Shown here: positions 37,633-61,982 of the stretch, one piece after another
Layout: each line of letters starts with the position of its first letter
Numbering within the stretch: position 1 is the first letter of the stretch
IMG/VR virus record: IMGVR_UViG_3300025942_000001
Direction: 5' to 3' (one strand)
Source: a virus
Lineage: Duplodnaviria > Heunggongvirae > Uroviricota > Caudoviricetes
Length of the DNA: 64,000 nt
Translations under genes and position numbers: made by a program
Notes under the pieces: model-generated
The model's input: only the letters and a program-made list of their open reading frames with translations
What the model was told of the DNA's origin: nothing
The model's database searches: none

Positions 37633-37708
37633 GCCGCGTAGACTGGCTGGTGGCTAGGGTATGTCTTATAAACATATTAAAGGTTGAGTTCGATCCTCAC
37701 ACGCGGCA
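37633..37708 (+). tRNA. tRNA, probable Ile (anticodon TAT), with a slightly irregular fold
   Basis: The acceptor gccgcgt pairs with acgcggc. The anticodon stem tatgt/acata is perfect and the loop is cttataa. The T-loop is ttcgatc. Irregularities are a 3-nt linker, a 7-nt variable region and one T-stem mismatch. Confidence 0.4.
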
Positions 37709-38124
37709 CGTCCGGAAGGAATAACATGTTCAATATTATTACAAGTAAAACATTACAAGTATTATTTGCCATTGTATGTGTTGTTGGTTTAGGTTTTGGT
37801 ATTAAAGCATGTACGATGACATGTCCTACTGTAACTGGAAAACGAGAAGAATCAGGATTCTTTGGTAGTTATTATTTGGATCTTTCAGATAATACAACAG
37901 ATACCGTTTCTAGAAAAATATATAGTTTGAATGACATTGGCGAACATCACTGCTAAGGAGTTGACCGACATGGAAGACATTTCTAAGCTACATCCGATCA
38001 TTTTCCGATTGACTAATCGAGAATGGGAAGAGTTCAACAGAGTGCTTGATCGAGAGCCGGTTTTCATGCCAAAAATGCAAGCACTTTTGTCCAAGCCCAG
38101 CGTTTTTATTCCAGAGGATGAGTG

Positions 38125-44623: not shown

Positions 44624-44828
44624 ATATATTTATCGCGGGATGTATAAAAGAGTTGATGAATCCACATGGCATTCATGGTCTAAAAAAGTATACAAAATGA
44701 AGCATCATGCAAGAATTGGCTTTCCTAAGAATATGAAATGGATTCCAGAAGAAGGATTCTGGTTTGATCAGAGTCGCGGAATGTGCTATAAGATCCAGCG
44801 TTCAACAGGATGGGAAGATGTAGAATGA
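44610..44828 (+). CDS. hypothetical protein
   Basis: ORF of 72 aa. Confidence 0.3.
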   Translation: MNMDEYIYRGMYKRVDESTWHSWSKKVYKMKHHARIGFPKNMKWIPEEGFWFDQSRGMCYKIQRSTGWEDVE

Positions 44829-45178
44829 GTGAATGGATAACAAAAGACAGTGGTGTCAGAGAGCCGTATGAATCTGGTATGGTAAGAGACACTCAAAATG
44901 GCAAGCCAATGTTCATGTTGATGATACCTGTAGATGTTCCATATAATGAACAGATGTTTACTAGAGTTGCGGGATTAATGGCACGCGGTGCTGAGAAATA
45001 TGGTTTTCGGAATTGGGAAAAAGCCAATAGTGAAGTAGAGCTTGAAAGATTTAAAGAATCAGCCTTTAGACATTTTATGCAATGGGTTACTGGCGAAACT
45101 GATGAAGATCATGCAGCAGCAGTATTTTTTAATATAATTGCTGCCGAGTCACTGAAATGGAAATTAAATGAACAATAA
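44810..45178 (+). CDS. putative nucleotide pyrophosphohydrolase (MazG-like, weak call)
   Basis: An all-alpha segment EKYGFRNWE...AFRHFMQW...DHAAAVFFN resembles the MazG or dNTP-PPase helices. Confidence 0.3.
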   Translation: MGRCRMSEWITKDSGVREPYESGMVRDTQNGKPMFMLMIPVDVPYNEQMFTRVAGLMARGAEKYGFRNWEKANSEVELERFKESAFRHFMQWVTGETDEDHAAAVFFNIIAAESLKWKLNEQ

Positions 45179-45503: not shown

Positions 45504-45721
45504 TTCCAGTAAATAATTTTAAAGAAGAAATAGAAGACAAACTTTATGAGGCATATGAAGAGTATCTTCCAGGAAAATATGGTAATAAACTTGCATCCGA
45601 AATGGGTGCAAACATGTTGCTTTGGGATCTTCAATCTCCAAAAGTAAGACAATATATACGTTATATTCTAGCTAGATCAGACATTGATTGGACATACGTT
45701 GACAATTCTATTAAAGACTGA
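45494..45721 (+). CDS. hypothetical protein
   Basis: ORF of 75 aa. Confidence 0.3.
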   Translation: MAMIPVNNFKEEIEDKLYEAYEEYLPGKYGNKLASEMGANMLLWDLQSPKVRQYIRYILARSDIDWTYVDNSIKD

Positions 45722-46145
45722 CAATCTATTTGATTCCGGCGCTGATGCACTAGTCAATGCGGTTAACTGTGTGGGTGTAATGGGTGGCGGTATTGCTCTT
45801 GAATTCAAGAATCGTTATCCTGAAATGTTTAGGCAATATGCATTGTATTGCGAACGGGGATTTTTCCGGCCGGGAGTGGTGATGACGTACCAACATGATG
45901 ATGGCAAGTATGTCATTAACTATCCAACAAAGGATGATTGGCGTAATCCAAGTAGACTGTCTTATGTCATCAAGGGCTTTGACAGTCTGTTGATTAGAGT
46001 AAAGAATTTCGATATCAAGTCTGTAGCAATTCCGGCGCTAGGTTGTGGTCTTGGTGGTCTTGATTGGAATGAAGTAAGACCAATTCTCTATGCGCTAAAT
46101 GATGAAATGCCTAATGTTACATGGATGATTTATCCACCGCAGTGA
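45684..46145 (+). CDS. Macro-domain protein (ADP-ribose binding or hydrolase)
   Basis: The macro-domain signature reads ADALVNAVNCVGVMGGGIALEF. A later GCGLGG is also present. The start may be TTG or lie further downstream. Confidence 0.65.
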   Translation: MIGHTLTILLKTDNLFDSGADALVNAVNCVGVMGGGIALEFKNRYPEMFRQYALYCERGFFRPGVVMTYQHDDGKYVINYPTKDDWRNPSRLSYVIKGFDSLLIRVKNFDIKSVAIPALGCGLGGLDWNEVRPILYALNDEMPNVTWMIYPPQ

Positions 46146-49870: not shown

Positions 49871-50299
49871 ATGAAAATTTGTAGTAAATGTAAATTAGAA
49901 TTAGATATAAAAGAATTTGGTAGGCGTGGATTTAAAAAAGATGGCTCAGATTTATTACGATCGCACTGTAACAAATGTCGTGCCGAATATGATAAAAAAT
50001 GGTCTAGAGATAACAAGCATAGATACGTAGAAGATTCTGAAATACAACTGAAAAAGAAACAATACGTTATTGATCATCTCAAGAGCAATCCTTGTATAGA
50101 TTGTGGAGAAACTGATCCGATTGTCTTACAATTTGATCATGTTCGTGGCATCAAACATAGAGCCATAGCACAATTAATAGCAAGACACGCGCCTTTAATC
50201 ACTATAATAGAAGAAATTGCCAAATGTGACGTTAGATGCGCAAATTGTCATACCAGAATAACAGCAATGCGCGCTGGATTTTGGAAAACAAAATATTAA
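49871..50299 (+). CDS. HNH endonuclease (homing-endonuclease-like)
   Basis: CIDCGETDPIVLQFDHVRG...CANCH is a paralog of the ORF at 61304. Confidence 0.65.
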   Translation: MKICSKCKLELDIKEFGRRGFKKDGSDLLRSHCNKCRAEYDKKWSRDNKHRYVEDSEIQLKKKQYVIDHLKSNPCIDCGETDPIVLQFDHVRGIKHRAIAQLIARHAPLITIIEEIAKCDVRCANCHTRITAMRAGFWKTKY

Positions 50300-50322: not shown

Positions 50323-50394
50323 TGGGTTATAGTTTATGCGTTAAAACACCAGCATTAGGGGCTGGCGAAACTGGTTCGACTCCAGTTAACCCAC
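50323..50394 (+). tRNA. tRNA with anticodon TAG (Leu-type anticodon but a short class-I variable arm, so identity is uncertain)
   Basis: The acceptor tgggtta pairs with taaccca. The D-arm reads gttt-atgcgtta-aaac. The anticodon stem is ccagc/gctgg with loop atTAGgg. The T-arm is actgg-ttcgact-ccagt. Confidence 0.45.
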
Positions 50395-50498: not shown

Positions 50499-52115
50499 AT
50501 GTCAAAGGCACTAAATTCAGTTAACACAAAGAATACTGCACCAAAGCAGCAAGCAAAGTCTACTCAGGTTGTAAATAACGCCGGTGGATTTGTATTTAAG
50601 GTAAGCGACAAGGATCGTTTTGAACGCTTTCTTATTCTTGGTGTTGATGGCGGTACTTATTACGTCAAGCAGCAGGATCTTCTAAATCAGAACCTTGATT
50701 TTATTCGCGAATACATTTCAACAAATCCAATTGAAGCAATTGGCCAGATTGTTGATGTGTCTGCAAATGGTCGCGCTAAGTCTAACGACCCAGCGCTATT
50801 TGCTCTTGCATTCGCAATGAACATTGATGGTGTAGATCGTTCAATTGTTTCAGCAGCGGTGCTTAAAGTAGCCCGTACTTCTACTCATCTATTTACCTAT
50901 GCTCAGTTTCTTAAGAATCTAGGTGGATGGGGTCGAGCTAAGAAGAATTCAATCGCCAATTGGTATGAGTCAAAAGATGCCGATAAGCTGGCTTATCAAG
51001 TTGTTAAGTATCGTCAGCGCGACGGTTGGACTCATCGAGATCTATTCCGTCTGTCTCACCCTAAGGGCATTAGTACCAGCATTGGTGACTTTGTTCTAGG
51101 TAAGGATCATGCACAGGTAGATGACCTTCGTATTATTGAAGGATTCAAGGCAATTCAGAAGGCTACTTCTATCAAGGAAGTGACTGATCTAATTAAGTCA
51201 CACAATCTTCCTTGGGAGACTGCACCTACTGAATTTCACAAGAATCTAGAACTGTGGAAGACATTGTTCTATACTGACAATCTTGGTCAGACGGCGCTTC
51301 TACGAAACGTTGTTCGTATTGCCAAGCTCGGCGGATTCAATGATATGGTGTTCGCTGCTGATTACGCAAAGCGACTAGCTGATGAAGACAGAATTCACAA
51401 GGGTCTGATTCATCCAATTGAATATCTAAATGCTGCTGTTGTCTATGAAGAGGGTCAAATTGAACGTCGTGGCAACAGAAATGGTAGCTATAATAGTTAT
51501 GGTATCGATCGTAATAAGACTTGGGAAACAAACAGCAAGGTTCTTGCTGGACTAACTAAGGGATACTATGCGGCATTCAAGAATGTAGAACCTGCAAACA
51601 AGCGCACGCTAGTTGGTGTAGATGTTTCTGGATCTATGTCTTGGTCTGCTGGTCAGGGTCTTGATCTTAGTTGTGCTCAAGTTGCCGGTGCGGTAGCAAT
51701 GCAGATTGCTCGCACAGAACCTTATTCAATGATCAGAGGTTTTTCAGATTCATTCGTGGATCTAAACATCACTGAGAATGACACTCTTGCACAGGCAATG
51801 AGAAAGGTTCAGCGTAACAACTTCGGTAGTACTGATTGTTCGCTTCCTATGGAATGGGCAATTGAGAACAACGTCGAGATTGATACCTTTGTTGTCATCA
51901 CTGATAATGAAACGTATGCTGGACGACGTCATCCGTTCCAGGCTCTCAAGGCCTATAGACAACACACGGGCATCGATGCTAGACTAGCGGTGTTGGGTGT
52001 GACGGCTACGGACTTCACGATCGCGGACCCTTCAGATAAGGGAATGATGGATTTTTGCGGGTTCGATAGTTCTGGACCTGCAATGCTAGCTAATTTCTCA
52101 GCCGGTCGTATTTAA
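50499..52115 (+). CDS. rsr: Ro60-like protein (TROVE domain plus C-terminal vWA with a MIDAS motif)
   Basis: The 538-aa protein has an N-terminal TROVE-like region. The C-terminal vWA domain reads LVGVDVSGSMS (DxSxS MIDAS), followed by further T and D MIDAS residues in FGSTDCSLP. Confidence 0.7.
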   Translation: MSKALNSVNTKNTAPKQQAKSTQVVNNAGGFVFKVSDKDRFERFLILGVDGGTYYVKQQDLLNQNLDFIREYISTNPIEAIGQIVDVSANGRAKSNDPALFALAFAMNIDGVDRSIVSAAVLKVARTSTHLFTYAQFLKNLGGWGRAKKNSIANWYESKDADKLAYQVVKYRQRDGWTHRDLFRLSHPKGISTSIGDFVLGKDHAQVDDLRIIEGFKAIQKATSIKEVTDLIKSHNLPWETAPTEFHKNLELWKTLFYTDNLGQTALLRNVVRIAKLGGFNDMVFAADYAKRLADEDRIHKGLIHPIEYLNAAVVYEEGQIERRGNRNGSYNSYGIDRNKTWETNSKVLAGLTKGYYAAFKNVEPANKRTLVGVDVSGSMSWSAGQGLDLSCAQVAGAVAMQIARTEPYSMIRGFSDSFVDLNITENDTLAQAMRKVQRNNFGSTDCSLPMEWAIENNVEIDTFVVITDNETYAGRRHPFQALKAYRQHTGIDARLAVLGVTATDFTIADPSDKGMMDFCGFDSSGPAMLANFSAGRI

Positions 52116-53964: not shown

Positions 53965-54786
53965 ATGTCCAAAATATTGGTGATGGGTGACATTCATGGA
54001 AACTGGATTTGGGCAAAAAAGATTATTGATGTAGCTGTTGCTGAAGACATCGATAAAATTATTCAAGTTGGTGATTTTGGAGTTTGGCCAGGTCCGGAAG
54101 GCAGAGAATATCTTTTAATTTTATCCAGATATCTAGTAAAGAAAAGCAAAAAGCTGGGTAGACAAGTTAATCTATATTTTCTGCCGGGCAATCACGAAGA
54201 CTACAATCAAATCGATCAGTGGATGCTTAATATCAAACCAAATGAATATGGACATCGAGAGATCGAACCTAATCTTTTCTATACTGGCAAAGTAAATAGT
54301 TGGATTTGGGAAGGTAAAAAGTTCGGTGTGGTCGGCGGTGCAGTCTCCATTGATAGACGTAGTCGTAAACTCAATGAATCTTGGTGGCCGCAAGAGGTTC
54401 TTACTGCTGAAGAAATTGATCAAGCCAAAGAACTAGGCAAGATCGACTATCTATTCACACATGATTGTCCAACACAACATCCATTCAACTTTCTGATTGA
54501 TCACCTTGATTCCACTATTCATCGTCAATACATGACTGACATTGCCAGAGTGCTTAAGCCAAAAGCATGGTTCCACGGTCACTATCATCACTATGCAGAG
54601 TATTTATTTCATCATGATACCGGAGTGACCCCAGTTTATTCTCTGGATGCTGACGTACGTGCTACACACTCTCCAAGTCTTCAGCGTCATACGGTTGTGC
54701 TGGACGTAGAGACTGGTGTAGTATCCAGCATAGACAAGCAGTTCGAGTGGTTCGGTCAGAGATTCTATTTTGATAGGGAGCGTTAA
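53965..54786 (+). CDS. Calcineurin-like metallophosphatase (lambda-PPase or ApaH-like)
   Basis: Motifs present are GDIHGN, VGDFGVW, GNHEDY and GHYHH. Confidence 0.65.
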   Translation: MSKILVMGDIHGNWIWAKKIIDVAVAEDIDKIIQVGDFGVWPGPEGREYLLILSRYLVKKSKKLGRQVNLYFLPGNHEDYNQIDQWMLNIKPNEYGHREIEPNLFYTGKVNSWIWEGKKFGVVGGAVSIDRRSRKLNESWWPQEVLTAEEIDQAKELGKIDYLFTHDCPTQHPFNFLIDHLDSTIHRQYMTDIARVLKPKAWFHGHYHHYAEYLFHHDTGVTPVYSLDADVRATHSPSLQRHTVVLDVETGVVSSIDKQFEWFGQRFYFDRER

Positions 54787-54787
54787 G

Positions 54788-55522
54788 ATGATGCATTCCA
54801 GTCTTGGTATGCGTATGAAAGAATATGAAAAGAATTCTGCCACAGAAAAAGGCGTTAATATTATCCGTCTTGATGGCAGAGCTTTTCATACATGGACAAA
54901 GAAAGTTCTAAGGCATAAAACACCTTTTAGTTATGTTGTTCATGATTGTATGACTCATGCAACCGAAGCTTTGGCATCGGAAATGCAAGGATTTAAACTT
55001 GCTTATACACAATCAGATGAGGCTACTCTTCTGATGGAAAACCTGGGTGAAAGAACTGAAGCTTGGTTCGGCGGAAAGACGCAAAAGATTGCTAGTATTG
55101 CCGCGTCTATTTTTACTTACGCTTTTAATAGCCGTTACAATTATTATGTGGACACTCTTGGCTATGCAGATATTCCTGCCTACTTTGATGCTCGTGTTCA
55201 TTCTATCCCTGTAGAAGATGCACCAAATAATTTTGTATGGCGACAAAAGGATTGGCAGCGTAATTCAATTCAAATGCTAGGTCAATTCCATCTTGGTCAA
55301 TCTGTGATGAATGGATTGAGCAATCAGCAAGTTATCAATGACCTTAATTTTCATGGAATCTATTGGGATTATCTAGATGAATGGAAGAAATATGGAACAT
55401 TCATCGGTAGGAATCATCTAGATCCTAAAGAGAACAGGCGTTTTGTGACATTTTCAGACTATTTATCTTATAAAGATGTCGCAATTCATGCAGACATTCA
55501 TAATTACATTGATTGGGATTAA
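54788..55522 (+). CDS. Thg1-like tRNA-His guanylyltransferase (3'-5' nucleotidyltransferase)
   Basis: NIIRLDGRAFH matches the VVVRLDGRNFH motif of Thg1. YTQSDEATL matches YGQSDEYSF. TQKIASIAASIFTYAFN matches ASKFMTHVASQFAS. Confidence 0.75.
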   Translation: MMHSSLGMRMKEYEKNSATEKGVNIIRLDGRAFHTWTKKVLRHKTPFSYVVHDCMTHATEALASEMQGFKLAYTQSDEATLLMENLGERTEAWFGGKTQKIASIAASIFTYAFNSRYNYYVDTLGYADIPAYFDARVHSIPVEDAPNNFVWRQKDWQRNSIQMLGQFHLGQSVMNGLSNQQVINDLNFHGIYWDYLDEWKKYGTFIGRNHLDPKENRRFVTFSDYLSYKDVAIHADIHNYIDWD

Positions 55523-55525
55523 TAA

Positions 55526-57436
55526 ATGCTACCTACTAAAACAGATATTCGTGTAAGTGGTGATTTGGGCGGGGAAAGAGTACAGATGCGCCTTGATGCC
55601 GATAGTACAGCGCATCTTATGTCACTATTGACAGATCTATATTCTGACCCGCTTCTAGCAGTAATCAGAGAATATAGTACAAATGCGTGGGATTCTCATG
55701 TAGCTGCTGGTGTAAATAAGCCAATTGAGGTAACCACGCCAAACTATCTAACATCAACATTCCGTGTCAAGGATTCTGGTCTTGGTATGGATGCAAATGA
55801 TATTCGTGAAATCTATTCAAGCTATGGTGCTTCTACCAAGCGATCAAGCAATGATCAGGTCGGTATGCTTGGTCTTGGTAGTAAGAGTGGTTTGACTTAT
55901 ACTGATCAATTTAATGTTATCGGCATTAAGAATGGTGTAAAGACAAGTGTTGCCGTTTCACGTTCTGGTGATGGTGGCGGTGTCATGGAAATCATTGATG
56001 CTTCTCCCACCAATGAACCTAATGGTGTTGAGATTATTGTTCCTATTAAAAGCAACAGCAATATTTTGAGTAAAGCTGAACAGTTCTTCAGATTTTGGGA
56101 ACCAGGCAGGGTTTTGCTTAATGGTAAAGAGCCGCATTACATCTGGGAAGATGCAACCCAGGTCGGCAGATTTTATATCATCAATGATACAACCGACTAT
56201 GTTGTCATGGGTAACGTGGCTTATCCGGTAAAGAATGAGATTACCGGACAAGAGGGTTATAATCGTGAACGTGCTGTCGTGAAAGTTGACATCGGTGATG
56301 TTACTTTTACTCCTTCACGTGAATCATTGCAGATGACTCTTACTACTAAGAAAATGCTTGAAAGTCTACGTGAAGAATTCGCAGCCGAAGTAGTCAAAGA
56401 AATTGAAGTAAAGCTTTCAGCCTGTAACACCTACAAAGAAGCCTATAAAATGTTCAAGTCTTTAAGAAACATGAACACTTTTACCAGGCATATGAACAAT
56501 GCAACCTATAAGGGTGCAAAGTACATCGAATCTTATAGGTTCGATTGGCATGTCAGCGGTTTTCATCGTGATCAAATCAGTGCGGTGGAAGCTAGAAACT
56601 CCAGTCTAGGTTATGGTCTTGATAACATAGTTATTATTCATGGCTTTGATTGTGCTAGACTGAATGCCCCACAGAAAAAGAAAATAAAACTGTATCTTGA
56701 GGACAATGGAATTCTTACTGGACAAGCTGTAGTCTTTGTCAATAAAAACAAGCCTGATTCAGTATGGTTCAGTGAATGTCATCAGGTTGAATGGAAGACA
56801 ATCAAGGCTATCAAGTTGGAGTCCACGCGGGTAGTAAGAACACAAGACACTTGGGATGTTCTTCGTTCCCGTGGTAATAGAGATTACAATCAGATTGTAG
56901 ACAATACAAAGAAGCTTATTTATGCTTCCGGCGCTGAGATCAATGCTGATGCTGATCCTATTCTTGATATTCTTATTAATAACGATACTCAATTTCTTTT
57001 GGTTGGTAAAAATCGTCAAGACAAGTTCATCAAGGCTAATCCAAAAGCCGTATATTGGCTTGACGAGGCTAAGACCAGAGTGCTACACTATATTGACAAC
57101 GTAGCAAAAGATGACATTAAACTGATCGACCAAGATATGAATCACATTGATATTCTATCAAGACTGGATATGTCAAAAATTGATGATCCGGAAGTTAGTA
57201 GTATTGTATTCAGTGGTTCAGTAAATTCCCAGCATAAGGCACAAGAGCGATATAGCAATTATCGTAGATTGGCATCAAGGCTAAAGGTTGCGGGGATGCC
57301 AGAACGTCTTGGTCGTGGAAGTACAAATCTACTTGATAATTATCCTATGCTTACACAGCTTGGATATAATTGTAGATATATTCCAGAAGATCACATCTAT
57401 GCTTACATGAATGCCATTTATGATTTAGGCCTATAA
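55526..57436 (+). CDS. Hsp90/HtpG-like GHKL ATPase-domain protein (636 aa)
   Basis: The N-box reads LMSLLTDLYSDPLLAVIREYSTNAWDS, close to the Hsp90 segment [27 protein letters not shown]. The G1 box reads KDSGLGM and the G2 box reads GMLGLGSKSG. Confidence 0.5.
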   Translation: MLPTKTDIRVSGDLGGERVQMRLDADSTAHLMSLLTDLYSDPLLAVIREYSTNAWDSHVAAGVNKPIEVTTPNYLTSTFRVKDSGLGMDANDIREIYSSYGASTKRSSNDQVGMLGLGSKSGLTYTDQFNVIGIKNGVKTSVAVSRSGDGGGVMEIIDASPTNEPNGVEIIVPIKSNSNILSKAEQFFRFWEPGRVLLNGKEPHYIWEDATQVGRFYIINDTTDYVVMGNVAYPVKNEITGQEGYNRERAVVKVDIGDVTFTPSRESLQMTLTTKKMLESLREEFAAEVVKEIEVKLSACNTYKEAYKMFKSLRNMNTFTRHMNNATYKGAKYIESYRFDWHVSGFHRDQISAVEARNSSLGYGLDNIVIIHGFDCARLNAPQKKKIKLYLEDNGILTGQAVVFVNKNKPDSVWFSECHQVEWKTIKAIKLESTRVVRTQDTWDVLRSRGNRDYNQIVDNTKKLIYASGAEINADADPILDILINNDTQFLLVGKNRQDKFIKANPKAVYWLDEAKTRVLHYIDNVAKDDIKLIDQDMNHIDILSRLDMSKIDDPEVSSIVFSGSVNSQHKAQERYSNYRRLASRLKVAGMPERLGRGSTNLLDNYPMLTQLGYNCRYIPEDHIYAYMNAIYDLGL

Positions 57437-57464: not shown

Positions 57465-58322
57465 ATGTCAAGAGCGGTAAAATATAATCTAGTATGCAAT
57501 GAATCAGATAATATTACAGTTTTCGTGGCCGGTGAAATGTATGTCGCGGATTCAGATCACAATCCTAACTTTTCAGAGATCGTAGAAAAAGTACTGGCTG
57601 ACGATGTTTCAGTAGTAGAATTATTCGATCTAGAGAAGACAGTTAGTAAGAAGTTTGAAAGACTATCAGAGCGAGTTGTTGTTCGTAATGGCAATATCTA
57701 CTTTGATGGATCACCTGTTAACGATGTTCTTGGTAAGCAAGTTCTAAGATTCGTTGAAGATGACGTAGAAGATTGGCAGCCTCTTGTTCTATTCTGGGAA
57801 AATCTAGCTCAGAATCCCAATGAGCATTCACGTGAACAACTTTACAGTTGGCTTAATGATCGTAAATTCCAGATTTCTAAGAATGGTAACATTGTTGGAT
57901 TTAAGGGTGTCAAGGTAGTTAATGGTGAATATCGTTCAATTCACGCCGGTCCGGCAATTGTGGATGACGTCGAAATGAATGGATATATTCCTAATGCCAT
58001 TGGTTCAGTAATTGAAATGCCTAGAGCAAATGTTCAGTCTAATTCAGCCGTAGGTTGTTCAACTGGTCTACATGTTGGTACATATGACTATGCGAAGGAT
58101 TTTGCTCAGGGCGCGGTGCTAACTGTTTCAGTTAATCCTCGTGATGTTGTATCAGTTCCCTCTGATTGCAATGCAGCCAAGCTTAGAGTATGTCGTTATC
58201 GTGTAGTCAATGCAACAGCGGTGGAATGGTCAAGTGCTGTCTCTGACGTTGAAGATGATGAGTCTGATTATTATGACGACGGCTATGAATATGAAGACAC
58301 CAATGACTATTGGACTTCCTAA
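57465..58322 (+). CDS. hypothetical protein with an acidic C-terminal tail
   Basis: ORF of 285 aa. The putative RBS ccgaaagg lies upstream. Confidence 0.4.
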   Translation: MSRAVKYNLVCNESDNITVFVAGEMYVADSDHNPNFSEIVEKVLADDVSVVELFDLEKTVSKKFERLSERVVVRNGNIYFDGSPVNDVLGKQVLRFVEDDVEDWQPLVLFWENLAQNPNEHSREQLYSWLNDRKFQISKNGNIVGFKGVKVVNGEYRSIHAGPAIVDDVEMNGYIPNAIGSVIEMPRANVQSNSAVGCSTGLHVGTYDYAKDFAQGAVLTVSVNPRDVVSVPSDCNAAKLRVCRYRVVNATAVEWSSAVSDVEDDESDYYDDGYEYEDTNDYWTS

Positions 58323-59876: not shown

Positions 59877-60314
59877 ATGAAAGAGTGTAAGATATGTAAA
59901 AATGTAAAGTCTTTAGAAGATTTTCATAATAATAAGAATTTCCCCGATGGGAAAATGAGAGAATGTAAACCTTGCAATAATTCTAGAGCATCCGCATGGG
60001 GTAGAAATAATCCAGATAAAGTTAAATCCCCAGAAGCTTATCTAAAAAGAAATGCAATGCGACACGGGATTACTCAAGAGGAATTCCTATCTCTAAGAGA
60101 TTCACAAGATAATTTATGTGCTATATGTAAAATTTCAATACCTACATCAATAGATCATAATCATAATTGCTGTAATGGTACATATTCTTGTGGTTCTTGT
60201 ATAAGAGGATTATTATGTGGCAAGTGTAATAGGGGTATAGGTCATTTTAATGATGATATTGCGTTATTAAGTAACGCAATAGATTATTTAAATAAATTTA
60301 AATCTATACCTTAA
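59877..60314 (+). CDS. HNH endonuclease
   Basis: CAICK...IDHNHNCC...CGKCNRGIGHF. A TGgTATAAT extended -10 lies just upstream. Confidence 0.55.
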   Translation: MKECKICKNVKSLEDFHNNKNFPDGKMRECKPCNNSRASAWGRNNPDKVKSPEAYLKRNAMRHGITQEEFLSLRDSQDNLCAICKISIPTSIDHNHNCCNGTYSCGSCIRGLLCGKCNRGIGHFNDDIALLSNAIDYLNKFKSIP

Positions 60315-61303: not shown

Positions 61304-61753
61304 ATGTTTAAAACGTGCTCAAAATGCCTCAGTGTAAAAGATATAAATCTATTCCCTTGGAAAAGTAAGTCTCTTGGGAAAAAATCATCTTATTGCAAAG
61401 ACTGTCAAAAAGCTTTATCTAAAGATCATTATATTAGAAATAAGGCTTTATATTCAAATAAAGCAAAAATTAATAACAAATCTTATAAAACAAGAAATTA
61501 TCAATACGTATTAGAACATCTTCTACATAATCCATGTGTAGATTGTGGAGAGACGGATGTAGAAGTATTACAATTTGATCATATAGAAATGATAGGATCA
61601 TCTGGTAAGCGTATAGGCCACTATATGGCAGGCTCAATAGAGGCTTTGCAAAAAGAAATAAATAAATGTCAAGTAAGATGTGGAAATTGTCATATCAGAA
61701 GAACCAGATCACAAATGGGATGGTTCAGAATAAGCCCCGATGGCGGAAATTAG
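61304..61753 (+). CDS. HNH endonuclease (paralog of the 49871 gene)
   Basis: CVDCGETDVEVLQFDHIE...CGNCH. Confidence 0.65.
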   Translation: MFKTCSKCLSVKDINLFPWKSKSLGKKSSYCKDCQKALSKDHYIRNKALYSNKAKINNKSYKTRNYQYVLEHLLHNPCVDCGETDVEVLQFDHIEMIGSSGKRIGHYMAGSIEALQKEINKCQVRCGNCHIRRTRSQMGWFRISPDGGN

Positions 61754-61834: not shown

Positions 61835-61906
61835 ATTCGGTTGGACTAACGGCTAAGTCGCCTTGCCCTAGGTTAGGAGATGCGAGTACGATTCTCGTAC
61901 CGAATA
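61835..61906 (+). tRNA. tRNA-like gene with anticodon CTA (amber-suppressor-like). It may be a pseudo-tRNA.
   Basis: The acceptor attcggt pairs with accgaat. The D-stem is gact/agtc. The anticodon loop is ccCTAgg, with C at position 33. The T-loop is tacgatt rather than ttcgatt. One anticodon-stem pair is a T-T mismatch. Confidence 0.35.
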
Positions 61907-61911
61907 CTATA

Positions 61912-61982
61912 CCTCTCGAATTGTAATGGTTGCATACAGAATTGTGACTTCTGTGGAGCGGATTCGATTTCCGTCGGGGGGA
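61912..61982 (+). tRNA. tRNA-His (GTG) with discriminator A73 and no encoded G-1
   Basis: The anticodon stem cagaa/ttctg is perfect, with loop ttGTGac. The T-arm is gcgga-ttcgatt-tccgt. The acceptor cctctcg pairs with cgggggg through two G-U wobbles. The D-stem is weak. Confidence 0.45.

Follow-up and report, generated by a model that had tools for sequence, protein, structure and literature searches.

The window analyzed here, a 64,000-nucleotide stretch of DNA from a tRNA-rich phage, carries on its plus strand (54788..55522) an intact gene for a 244-residue Thg1-like protein (TLP), a predicted 3'-5' RNA nucleotidyltransferase that very likely has a role at tRNA 5' ends. The reading that we favor, at about even chances, is that this phage TLP serves general tRNA 5'-end maintenance, possibly including that of tRNA-His, and that it probably does not act, as the eukaryotic enzyme does, as a dedicated adder of G-1. 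The TLP is an added member of a known, already annotated phage family, PHROG 4717. What the preliminary description had reported was an annotated gene family together with an inference that comparisons did not uphold: its intact Thg1-family enzyme, with an active site now supported by alignment, and its A73 tRNA-His lacking G-1 both stand, while its eukaryote-like need for G-1 addition and its phosphatase partners are not supported.

The TLP gene and the type of enzyme it encodes

The ATG of the TLP gene at 54788 lies 8 nt 3' of a GGGAG Shine-Dalgarno sequence (54775..54779, plus strand; read from the sequence) that falls within the last few codons of the upstream ORF, whose TAA stop codon (54784-54786) leaves a gap of 1 nt; an alternative start at 54791 yields the 243-residue database form P0001. 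The ORF matches the Pfam family Thg1 (PF04446; E 6e-25, 88.1 bits against a 29.2-bit cutoff) and, over its full length, the PHROG 4717 profile "tRNA-His guanylyltransferase" (E 2e-63). The best match in the PDB is the Bacillus thuringiensis TLP (BtTLP, 4KGK; E 1e-28, residues 5-208). An AlphaFold2 model (pLDDT 93.1, pTM 0.90) has the polymerase-like palm fold, and Foldseek placed 4KGM and 4KGK on top (E 5e-19; TM 0.80/0.85), with ranks 1 to 32 occupied only by Thg1 or TLP structures. These matches agree with the signature motifs that had drawn attention to the ORF, which read RLDGRAFH, QSDE, and IASIAAS.

The predicted catalytic residues are likewise in place. Invariant across 25 aligned relatives are, among others, E14, R27, D29, S76, D77, E78, K100, R136, and N159, and K38 is invariant in an 11-sequence alignment that takes in BtTLP. 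Residues E14, R27, D29, D77, and E78 correspond to BtTLP E12, R28, D30, D75, and E76, and the three catalytic carboxylates (D29, D77, and E78) correspond to D29, D76, and E77 of human Thg1. The set used for 5' activation and nucleotidyl transfer is kept, its yeast Thg1 equivalents, assigned by alignment with BtTLP, being K44, S75, and N161; R27, K96, and R133; and E13. The gene is under purifying selection (dN/dS 0.13 to 0.27). We conclude from alignment that the ORF encodes a Thg1-family enzyme with a complete predicted active site.

Eukaryotic Thg1 is the true tRNA-His G-1-adding enzyme, and the preliminary description had envisaged a eukaryote-like G-1 addition for this phage. Eukaryotic Thg1 (human 3OTB, yeast, and Candida albicans 3WBZ) does have the same fold and the same three carboxylates as the window TLP, and the candidate substrate in the window is, as in eukaryotes, an A73 tRNA-His without an encoded G-1. 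However, the comparison with solved structures, which confirmed the family, did not group the protein with Thg1 rather than TLPs: BtTLP came first by both PDB E value and Foldseek, and the match to human Thg1 is far weaker (E 6e-8). The alignment further shows that the HINNLYN region following WRQxD is replaced in the window TLP by WQRNSIQ. The motif region reads WRQKDWQRNSIQM in the window TLP, similar to WRQQDASKNSISM in BtTLP, whereas human Thg1 reads WRQADCHINNLY. Because of the two E values and the replaced HINNLYN region, we class the window enzyme as a bacterial/archaeal-type TLP and not a eukaryotic Thg1. BtTLP thus offers the closest sequence and structural comparison, sharing the catalytic set and the TLP-type KNSIS/RNSIQ region. 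It differs in that identity is only ∼30 to 37%, in that the window TLP has an extra C-terminal tail (∼35 residues, common only to its own phage family), and in that the window TLP, whose activity is predicted only, is virus encoded and lies beside tRNA genes.

The biochemistry of BtTLP bears directly on what such an enzyme might do. Its additions are template dependent, and kinetically it favors 5'-truncated tRNAs over N-1 addition (PMC3061083). Its G-1 addition is ∼50 times less efficient on A73 than on C73 tRNA-His, and on A73 tRNA-His U-1 is favored over G-1 by ∼40:1; nontemplated G-1 addition opposite A73, at which BtTLP is poor, has so far been a eukaryotic specialty (PMC3061083). Reasoning by analogy with the solved chemistry of the family, D29 and D77 would hold two Mg2+ ions and the tRNA 5'-monophosphate would be activated with ATP or GTP. 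The activated end would then be attacked by the 3'-OH of an incoming NTP, extending the RNA in the 3'-to-5' direction, templated by the 3' strand of the acceptor end. In this manner, the enzyme could refill acceptor stems that have lost 5' nucleotides, in tRNAs of the phage or the host, as damage control or counterdefense. Addition of N-1 to tRNA-His may be one side reaction, and the TLP is probably not an anticodon-specific, nontemplated G-1 adder. We favor general 5'-end repair because of these properties of BtTLP (template dependence, preference for 5'-truncated tRNAs, and weak G-1 addition on A73), because the TLP does not appear to be tied to tRNA-His, and because RNA-repair genes neighbor it in other lineages.

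A noncanonical tRNA-His and its proposed pairing with TLP

The window encodes a noncanonical tRNA-His(GUG) at 61912..61982 (plus strand). The gene matches the Rfam tRNA family (42.9 bits; gathering score 29) and has C1:G72, discriminator A73, a genomic A at -1, and no encoded CCA, in agreement with the earlier observation of an A73 tRNA-His without a templated G-1. Position 8 is A, the D stem contains a U10/U25 mismatch, and ARAGORN does not call the gene. Orthologues occur in five relatives (L001, L018, L019, L020, and L021) and in mycobacteriophage Bongo. Across these, the cloverleaf is kept (97% of cells paired, with both sides changed in 17 of 21 pairs), and the observed covariation score was reached by 0 of 500 shuffles. 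The -1/73 state is A/A in the window, L001, L018, and L019, A/U in L020, and G/A in L021; the bacterial-type G-1:C73 pair is absent from the tRNA-His of all six family genomes with DNA. An 8-bp acceptor stem or a shifted G-1 was considered and rejected, since it would require a 4-bp T stem and a 1-nt 8/9 linker, and the L001 orthologue, with a normal U8/A9 and a 7-bp stem, also counts against alternative acceptor registers.

This tRNA-His is a possible TLP substrate. A rather unlikely alternative to general 5'-end maintenance, although the one that survives best, is that the TLP matures the phage's own tRNA-His: a -1 nucleotide (G, or else one templated by position 73, U for A73 and A for U73) would be added after RNase P cuts at +1, and the host HisRS would charge the product. 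Room for such a role is left by the six of six family genomes with DNA that pair a TLP with a structurally conserved tRNA-His lacking G-1:C73, located 6 to 9 kb downstream. In a TLP-positive lineage of 27 contigs that is unrelated to the family, a U-1/C73 tRNA-His, an ideal substrate for templated G-1 addition, lies ∼10 kb from the TLP. Furthermore, BtTLP complements yeast thg1-delta on A73 tRNA-His (PMC3061083), which also counts against general repair.

Other comparisons point the other way. Among 60 IMG/VR TLP clusters, a tRNA-His within 10 kb of the TLP was found in only three lineages besides the window family. Seven phage tRNA-His genes without an encoded G-1 come from groups almost entirely without TLP, by a counting argument over deposited records: those of four T4-like phages, Streptomyces phage Blueeyedbeauty, Gordonia phage GodonK, and Mycobacterium phage ScoobyDoobyDoo (avDM12-TAAL carries less weight, since six Aeromonas records are TLP positive). 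The whole genome of Bongo contains no TLP, yet its tRNA-His likewise shows C1:G72/A73/A-1. Conversely, no tRNA genes are present in vB_CoeS_P1, a Vibrio phage with a TLP, and 20 TLP-positive phage records are from phages infecting Caulobacter or Brevundimonas. Caulobacter crescentus is a cited example of a small alphaproteobacterial clade whose tRNA-His lacks any G-1 (PMC3245924), and we infer that Brevundimonas belongs to the same clade. Within the window family itself, the TLP allele has been exchanged by recombination between the window and L001 (dS 0.80 for TLP versus 0.13 to 0.29 for flanking genes), yet the tRNA-His acceptor end is unchanged between the two. The replaced HINNLYN region and the U-1 preference of BtTLP on A73 argue in the same direction. 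On these comparisons, TLP appears not to be tied to phage-encoded tRNA-His, and the earlier argument that a phage with no encoded G-1 needs its own enzyme is not supported, given how common G-1-less tRNA-His is in the sampled phage groups almost entirely without TLP, and given Bongo and vB_CoeS_P1. The more specific proposal that in this phage family the TLP and the noncanonical tRNA-His (A73 or U73) form a virus-encoded maturation pair, with a tRNA chargeable only after the phage enzyme has added the -1 nucleotide, is one that we regard as doubtful.

The adjoining metallophosphoesterase and the question of a repair module

The metallophosphatase ORF said to adjoin the Thg1-like ORF is there: a calcineurin-type metallophosphoesterase (MPE) of 273 residues is encoded at 53965..54786 on the plus strand (Metallophos PF00149, E 2e-14; PHROG 1649). 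Directly downstream of the TLP on the same strand are rIIA-like (55526-57436; PHROG 612, E 4e-98) and rIIB-like (57465-58322; PHROG 609, E 2e-57) genes, a synteny kept across the phage family. The family also conserves a block comprising Ro60, a tRNA-like element, SPFH, MPE, and TLP. The element lies upstream of Ro60 (50323-50394; Rfam), and when a Y RNA (YrlA) was sought beside Ro60, Rfam gave just "tRNA" for it.

A profile search of the PDB with MPE gave Dbr1 (4PEH) as the best match (E 5e-5), and a single-sequence search gave no match. The AlphaFold2 model (pLDDT 92) retrieved Dbr1-containing entries and Dbr1 (E 7e-12 to 1e-9), followed by Rv0805, Mre11, and LpxH, and Pnkp was absent from the top 50 matches in the profile and fold searches. 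Assignment as a lambda-type protein phosphatase or a Pnkp phosphoesterase was rejected, as profile and fold point to Dbr1 and Rv0805. By profile and predicted fold, MPE thus resembles Dbr1-type and cyclic-nucleotide phosphodiesterases and not Pnkp.

Could MPE and TLP form a two-step module in which MPE trims or heals a damaged RNA end that TLP then refills? MPE is co-transcribed with TLP, the 1-nt spacing between stop codon and ATG suggests translational coupling, every one of the eight family contigs examined keeps the adjacency, even where TLP identity falls to 48%, and Dbr1, representing the nearest structural relatives of MPE, acts on RNA phosphodiesters. However, MPE lies beside or near TLP only within the window phage family; outside it, 109 immediate TLP neighbors from 55 lineages yielded two weak MPE matches. 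MPE homologues are present in 323 phage records, mostly outside TLP-bearing genera, including 127 Streptomyces phage records, whereas TLP is present in at most 3 records of that genus. Streptomyces phage Jay2Jay has the order rIIA-rIIB-MPE and no TLP, and relative L099 has MPE, a small ORF, and rIIA in that order. The 12.4 kb of L099 examined contain neither a TLP nor a tRNA-His, so that L099 offers no within-family control. Moreover, TLP requires a 5'-phosphate or 5'-triphosphate, and a phosphatase would remove such ends rather than create them. A two-step module is therefore improbable. We judge from these gene arrangements that MPE is not a dedicated partner of TLP and that its conserved partners are rIIA and rIIB, with the TLP gene placed between them; the end-healing role proposed for the metallophosphatase is not supported.

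Nor is a wider tRNA end-healing module apparent. The ORF at 45168, earlier taken for a HAD Pnkp-like phosphatase, encodes a small HAD-like protein (PHROG 1238) with a weak match to the capsule phosphatase family TIGR01689 and no Pfam match, HAD_PNKP included. No Pfam or PHROG match to a polynucleotide kinase or RNA ligase was found among 20 ORFs tested between 36.5 and 64 kb. Known phage tRNA repair systems (T4 Pnkp and Rnl1, and RtcB of mycobacteriophage Bongo) share with TLP the presumed purpose of keeping tRNAs usable during infection, and in some other TLP-positive phages the TLP gene neighbors a gene for Pnkp, RlaP, cREC, or an RNA ligase. Those systems nevertheless heal and seal anticodon-loop breaks, whereas TLP would rebuild 5' ends. 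A second comparison is with the mitochondrial TLPs of Dictyostelium and Acanthamoeba, which are of the same enzyme type and refill the 5' strand of the acceptor stem in a template-dependent manner. Those enzymes, however, repair encoded mismatches in the first three base pairs. In the window, the 17 tRNAs that ARAGORN calls all have acceptor stems free of mismatches that would need editing, and mitochondria-like 5' editing was rejected on that ground. The lack of such mismatches, and of a ligase or kinase among the tested ORFs, counts against general repair.

Finally, it is very improbable that TLP acts on a non-tRNA target, such as the tRNA-like RNA upstream of Ro60, or makes or modifies nucleotide signals: this reading draws on the conserved Ro60-to-TLP block, on weak Foldseek matches of the TLP model to Csm complexes, and on the palm fold that Thg1 has in common with GGDEF and Cas10 polymerases (PMC2904730), but all characterized family members act on tRNA-shaped substrates (PMC3061083, PMC3245924), and the conserved residues are those for 5' activation and nucleotidyl transfer.

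Phage TLPs beyond the window

TLP homologues were found in GenBank (156 phage records) and in IMG/VR (331 loci). PHROG 4717 members, such as those of Rhodococcus phage Weasels2, Bacillus phage TsarBomba, Vibrio phage P018-4, Shewanella phage 1/4, and Xanthomonas phage XacN1, carry the same annotation as the window TLP and often reside in large, tRNA-rich phages; the placement of TLP between MPE and rIIA is peculiar to the window family. Within two genes of TLP, 55 independent lineages include HAD_PNKP (3), RlaP (2), cREC_REC (3), a CCA-adding enzyme (1), and a T4-type RNA ligase (1). The window TLP is <45% identical to that of any deposited phage, relatives at 48 to 84% occurring in metagenome assemblies only, and a search at the DNA level matched the MPE-TLP region to no deposited phage. 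By terminase (<50% identity), the nearest deposited relatives infect Streptomyces, Gordonia, and Vibrio; the window has a G+C content of 38.7%.

Phage TLPs are thus widespread, in deposited records and in hundreds of metagenomic loci, and no characterized one appears in the literature searched. That search, which covered phage TLP biochemistry and any connection of phage TLP with tRNA-His lacking G-1, returned annotations and, in a jumbo-phage review, a single sentence, but nothing else. Bacterial HisRS normally requires an encoded G-1, and the many phage tRNA-His genes without one, including those of Escherichia coli T4-like phages, raise the question of how they are charged. The window family offers a clean test case, with an intact TLP under purifying selection and a conserved odd tRNA-His nearby, and its natural comparators are Bongo (the same tRNA and no TLP) and vB_CoeS_P1 (a TLP and no tRNAs). 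If the maturation pair were true, it would be the first post-transcriptional installation of tRNA-His identity in a bacterial virus, and the histidine tRNA could work only in infected cells or escape a host measure directed against tRNA-His.

The Thg1-like protein and its locus

Several lines of evidence place the 244-residue open reading frame at 54788-55522 (+ strand) in the Thg1 family. It matches Pfam PF04446 with 88 bits (cutoff, 29 bits) and PHROG 4717 ("tRNA-His guanylyltransferase") with an E value of 2e-63, and a PDB search returned the Thg1-like protein (TLP) of B. thuringiensis (BtTLP; 4KGK) at 1e-28, compared with merely 6e-8 to 5e-7 for human/yeast-type Thg1. The best 32 Foldseek matches of its AlphaFold2 model (pLDDT 93) were all Thg1/TLP structures, with BtTLP first (E 5e-19; TM 0.80/0.85). 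The catalytic, metal-binding carboxylates D29, D77, and E78 do not vary in either of two alignments (11 and 25 relatives), nor do E14, R27, S76, K100, R136, and N159, and K38 is likewise constant in the smaller one; mutagenesis and structure assign the conserved residue set to 5' activation and nucleotidyl transfer (PMC3701042). The dN/dS values of the gene (0.13 to 0.27) denote purifying selection. Together, these data show that the window protein is an intact, selected, TLP-type Thg1 homologue.

The TLP gene is closely packed behind that of a 273-residue calcineurin-type metallophosphoesterase (MPE; 53965-54786, + strand; PF00149, E 2e-14; PHROG 1649). The MPE stop codon TAA ends at 54786, and the TLP ATG at 54788 is preceded by a GGGAG Shine-Dalgarno sequence; rIIA-like and rIIB-like genes (PHROG) lie directly 3'. 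The window belongs to a phage of ∼137 kb, the exact TLP protein (P0001) being encoded on a 137,624-bp contig, and its terminase is <50% identical to those of ∼130-kb phages of Streptomyces (Stanwilliamsviridae), Gordonia, Vibrio, and Rhodococcus. Relatives in metagenome assemblies are 135 to 139 kb long, with TLP identities of 48 to 84%, and the order Ro60(TROVE)-SPFH-...-MPE-TLP-rIIA-rIIB is kept in eight contigs of this family. Between the window and the relative L001 (10001-10735), TLP is 73% identical and the flanking genes are 94 to 97% identical; dS is 0.80 for TLP and 0.13 to 0.29 for MPE, rIIA, and rIIB. Because TLP dS lies so far above that of its flanks, the sequence comparison indicates that the TLP allele was replaced by recombination at this locus.

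The Ro60/Rsr orthologue (50499-52115; TROVE plus vWA; NF041674, E 2e-143) has a tRNA-like element 5' of it in every family member (window 50323-50394; with Ro60, L001 4805-6584, L019 5360-7253, L020 4807-6947, and L021 4851-6764). In the window this element is a 72-nt class I "tRNA" with anticodon UAG and a shape that is not Leu-like, for which Rfam reported "tRNA" alone; it is a candidate for the tRNA-like portion of a YrlA-type Y RNA.

The phage tRNA-His and its relation to TLP

The window carries 18 tRNA genes (ARAGORN and Rfam calls combined). Rfam reports a tRNA for 61912-61982 (42.9 bits) that ARAGORN missed. Read directly, it is a tRNA-His with anticodon GUG; its acceptor stem is 7 bp long (CCUCUCG/CGGGGGG; C1:G72), the discriminator is A73, and it has a genomic A at -1 and no encoded CCA, together with A8 and a weak D stem. 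Orthologues occur in five related contigs and in mycobacteriophage Bongo. The seven sequences fit a cloverleaf in 97% of cells, with changes on both sides of 17 of 21 pairs; 0 of 500 shuffles attained the observed score, and slid registers dropped to ∼50% pairing. The match is not due to chance, and this noncanonical tRNA-His is shown to be structurally conserved. What the preliminary description had observed (a Thg1-family gene, an MPE gene, and a tRNA-His with A73 and no encoded G-1) was thus borne out in full.

Upstream of the tRNA-His, at a distance of 5 nt, is an amber-suppressor-like tRNA (61835-61907; anticodon CUA; ARAGORN "Pyl"; Rfam 40.4 bits) that is missing from the corresponding position in L001; TAG terminates just 3 of 32 large ORFs. 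A Macro-domain protein and a dATP/dGTP diphosphohydrolase N-domain protein are also encoded in the tRNA region, along with three ORFs of the HNH/EndoVII homing type, scattered between tRNA genes, and a tRNA-Ile(UAU); together, these features occupy 45684-46145, 44810-45178, 49871-50299, 59877-60314, 61304-61753, and 37633-37709.

The claim that a tRNA-His lacking G-1 creates a need for TLP was weighed against three control sets: the family itself, phages outside TLP-bearing groups, and phages that have TLP but no matching tRNA. In the family, each of the six genomes for which DNA was available combines TLP with a tRNA-His lacking G-1:C73. Their acceptor ends vary: A-1/A73 in four, A-1/U73 (a potential pair) in L020, and G-1/A73 in L021. 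The acceptor end is identical between the window and L001 despite the TLP allele exchange. The co-occurrence inside the family is a single evolutionary event.

Outside the family, Bongo has a tRNA-His of the same type (A-1, CCUCUUG...CAGGGGG, A73; 76% identical) and encodes RtcB; genome-wide, neither tblastn nor a TLP profile search at E values up to 10 found a TLP. An encoded G-1 is normally needed by bacterial HisRS. Seven more phage tRNA-His genes have U-1, G1:C72, and C73, hence no encoded G-1: those of the actinophages Blueeyedbeauty (Streptomyces), GodonK (Gordonia), and ScoobyDoobyDoo (Mycobacterium), among records L016, L017, and L102, and of the T4-like phages RB18, PEi20, avDM12-TAAL, and ABTNLPp2 (L022-L025; enterobacteria and Aeromonas). 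Absence of TLP from these control groups is count-based, with a genome-wide check for Bongo alone. TLP homologues occur in 156 phage records, the tenth-commonest genus having 4, so genus counts allow TLP in ≤3 records each of Escherichia, Streptomyces, and Gordonia; the tRNA-His match occurs in 152 Escherichia records and a related terminase in 127 Streptomyces and 105 Gordonia records. With 6 TLP-positive records in Aeromonas, avDM12-TAAL is a weaker control. Three other phages (Arthrobacter Mimi, Microbacterium Big4, and Acinetobacter MD-2021a) encode G-1:C73.

Conversely, Vibrio phage vB_CoeS_P1 encodes a TLP 40% identical to that of the window and, according to its authors, no tRNA genes whatever. 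Twenty TLP-positive records are Caulobacter or Brevundimonas phages; the tRNA-His of a small alphaproteobacterial clade, with Caulobacter crescentus cited as its example, wholly lacks G-1 (PMC3245924), and we infer that Brevundimonas shares this trait. Among 60 IMG/VR TLP clusters, a tRNA-His lies ≤10 kb away in only three lineages besides the window family, one each with G-1/A73, U-1/C73, and G-1:C73. Thus, across phages, TLP and a G-1-less tRNA-His are not coupled, and the proposed need is not supported.

The metallophosphoesterase and ORF 45168

The preliminary description had also suggested that two phosphatases could be end-healing activities, a role that the comparisons did not sustain. 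MPE-TLP adjacency is limited to the window family; Metallophos appeared only twice, weakly, among immediate TLP neighbors in 55 other lineages. Homologues of MPE are found in 323 phage records, 146 of them from Mycobacterium and 127 from Streptomyces. Streptomyces phage Jay2Jay (L098 2024-5765) has the order rIIA-rIIB-MPE without TLP, and in a further relative (L099) MPE is followed by a small ORF and rIIA, with TLP absent within the 12.4 kb examined. Since this synteny exists elsewhere without TLP, the rII genes are the conserved partners of MPE, with the TLP gene located between MPE and rII genes. The best profile match of MPE is the RNA lariat debranching enzyme Dbr1 (E 5e-5, full length). 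Foldseek matched its AlphaFold2 model (pLDDT 92) to an intron-lariat spliceosome chain, then to Dbr1 crystal structures (E 7e-12 to 1e-9; TM about 0.57 to 0.6), followed by the cyclic-nucleotide phosphodiesterase Rv0805, Mre11, and LpxH; Pnkp was not among the top 50 matches. MPE probably has no part in TLP function and, on sequence and model similarity, is a lead for a putative 2'-5' or cyclic-nucleotide phosphodiesterase with an antidefense role. The ORF at 45168 (111 residues) is HAD-like (PHROG 1238), with a weak TIGR01689 match and no HAD_PNKP match.

Downstream of its tRNA array, Bongo (L106 10283-21865) encodes RtcB, a band-7/SPFH protein, MazG, and a phosphoesterase. The arrangement is loosely reminiscent of the Ro60-SPFH-MPE-TLP block, since in both an SPFH gene and a phosphoesterase gene accompany an RNA-repair gene next to an array of tRNA genes; similarity between the proteins of the two blocks was undetectable by tblastn.

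A probable role at tRNA 5' ends

Whether the protein is a Thg1 or a TLP decides its mechanism, and both sequence and fold group it with the TLPs of bacteria and archaea. The HINNLYN stretch of eukaryotic Thg1 is replaced by WQRNSIQ in the window protein and by SKNSIS in BtTLP, its closest characterized relative. BtTLP adds G-1 to A73 tRNA-His ∼50-fold less efficiently than to C73 and, given A73 and equimolar GTP and UTP, adds U-1 ∼40 times more than G-1; its kinetics favor refilling of 5'-truncated tRNAs in a template-dependent manner, and it complements yeast thg1-delta on A73 tRNA-His (Rao et al. 2011, PMC3061083). In view of this chemistry, efficient "eukaryote-like" nontemplated G-1 addition is not expected of this enzyme type, although it is possible.

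A repair role is supported by the type of enzyme, a BtTLP-like TLP. A minority of the other phage lineages have RNA-repair genes within two genes of TLP: HAD_PNKP (3), RlaP (2), cREC_REC (3), CCA-adding enzyme (1), and T4-type RNA ligase (1). Shewanella phage 1/4 encodes TLP, a CCA-adding enzyme, and peptidyl-tRNA hydrolase inside a 40-kb stretch, Thg1 has been named among jumbo-phage RNA-repair genes (Iyer et al. 2021), and in the window family the RNA quality-control gene Ro60/Rsr travels with TLP. Mitochondria-like editing of encoded mismatches was excluded for the 17 ARAGORN-called tRNAs of the window, none of which has a mismatched acceptor stem.

TLP would add nucleotides in the 3'-5' direction, template dependently, at tRNA 5' ends, and of the roles this chemistry could serve, general 5'-end maintenance is the likeliest, at about even confidence. 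Dedication to tRNA-His maturation is possible but rather improbable; as a hypothesis for the window TLP it is testable and currently unsupported. Phage TLPs are already widely annotated (PHROG 4717), and the window TLP is therefore a further member of a known family, one that is new and divergent.
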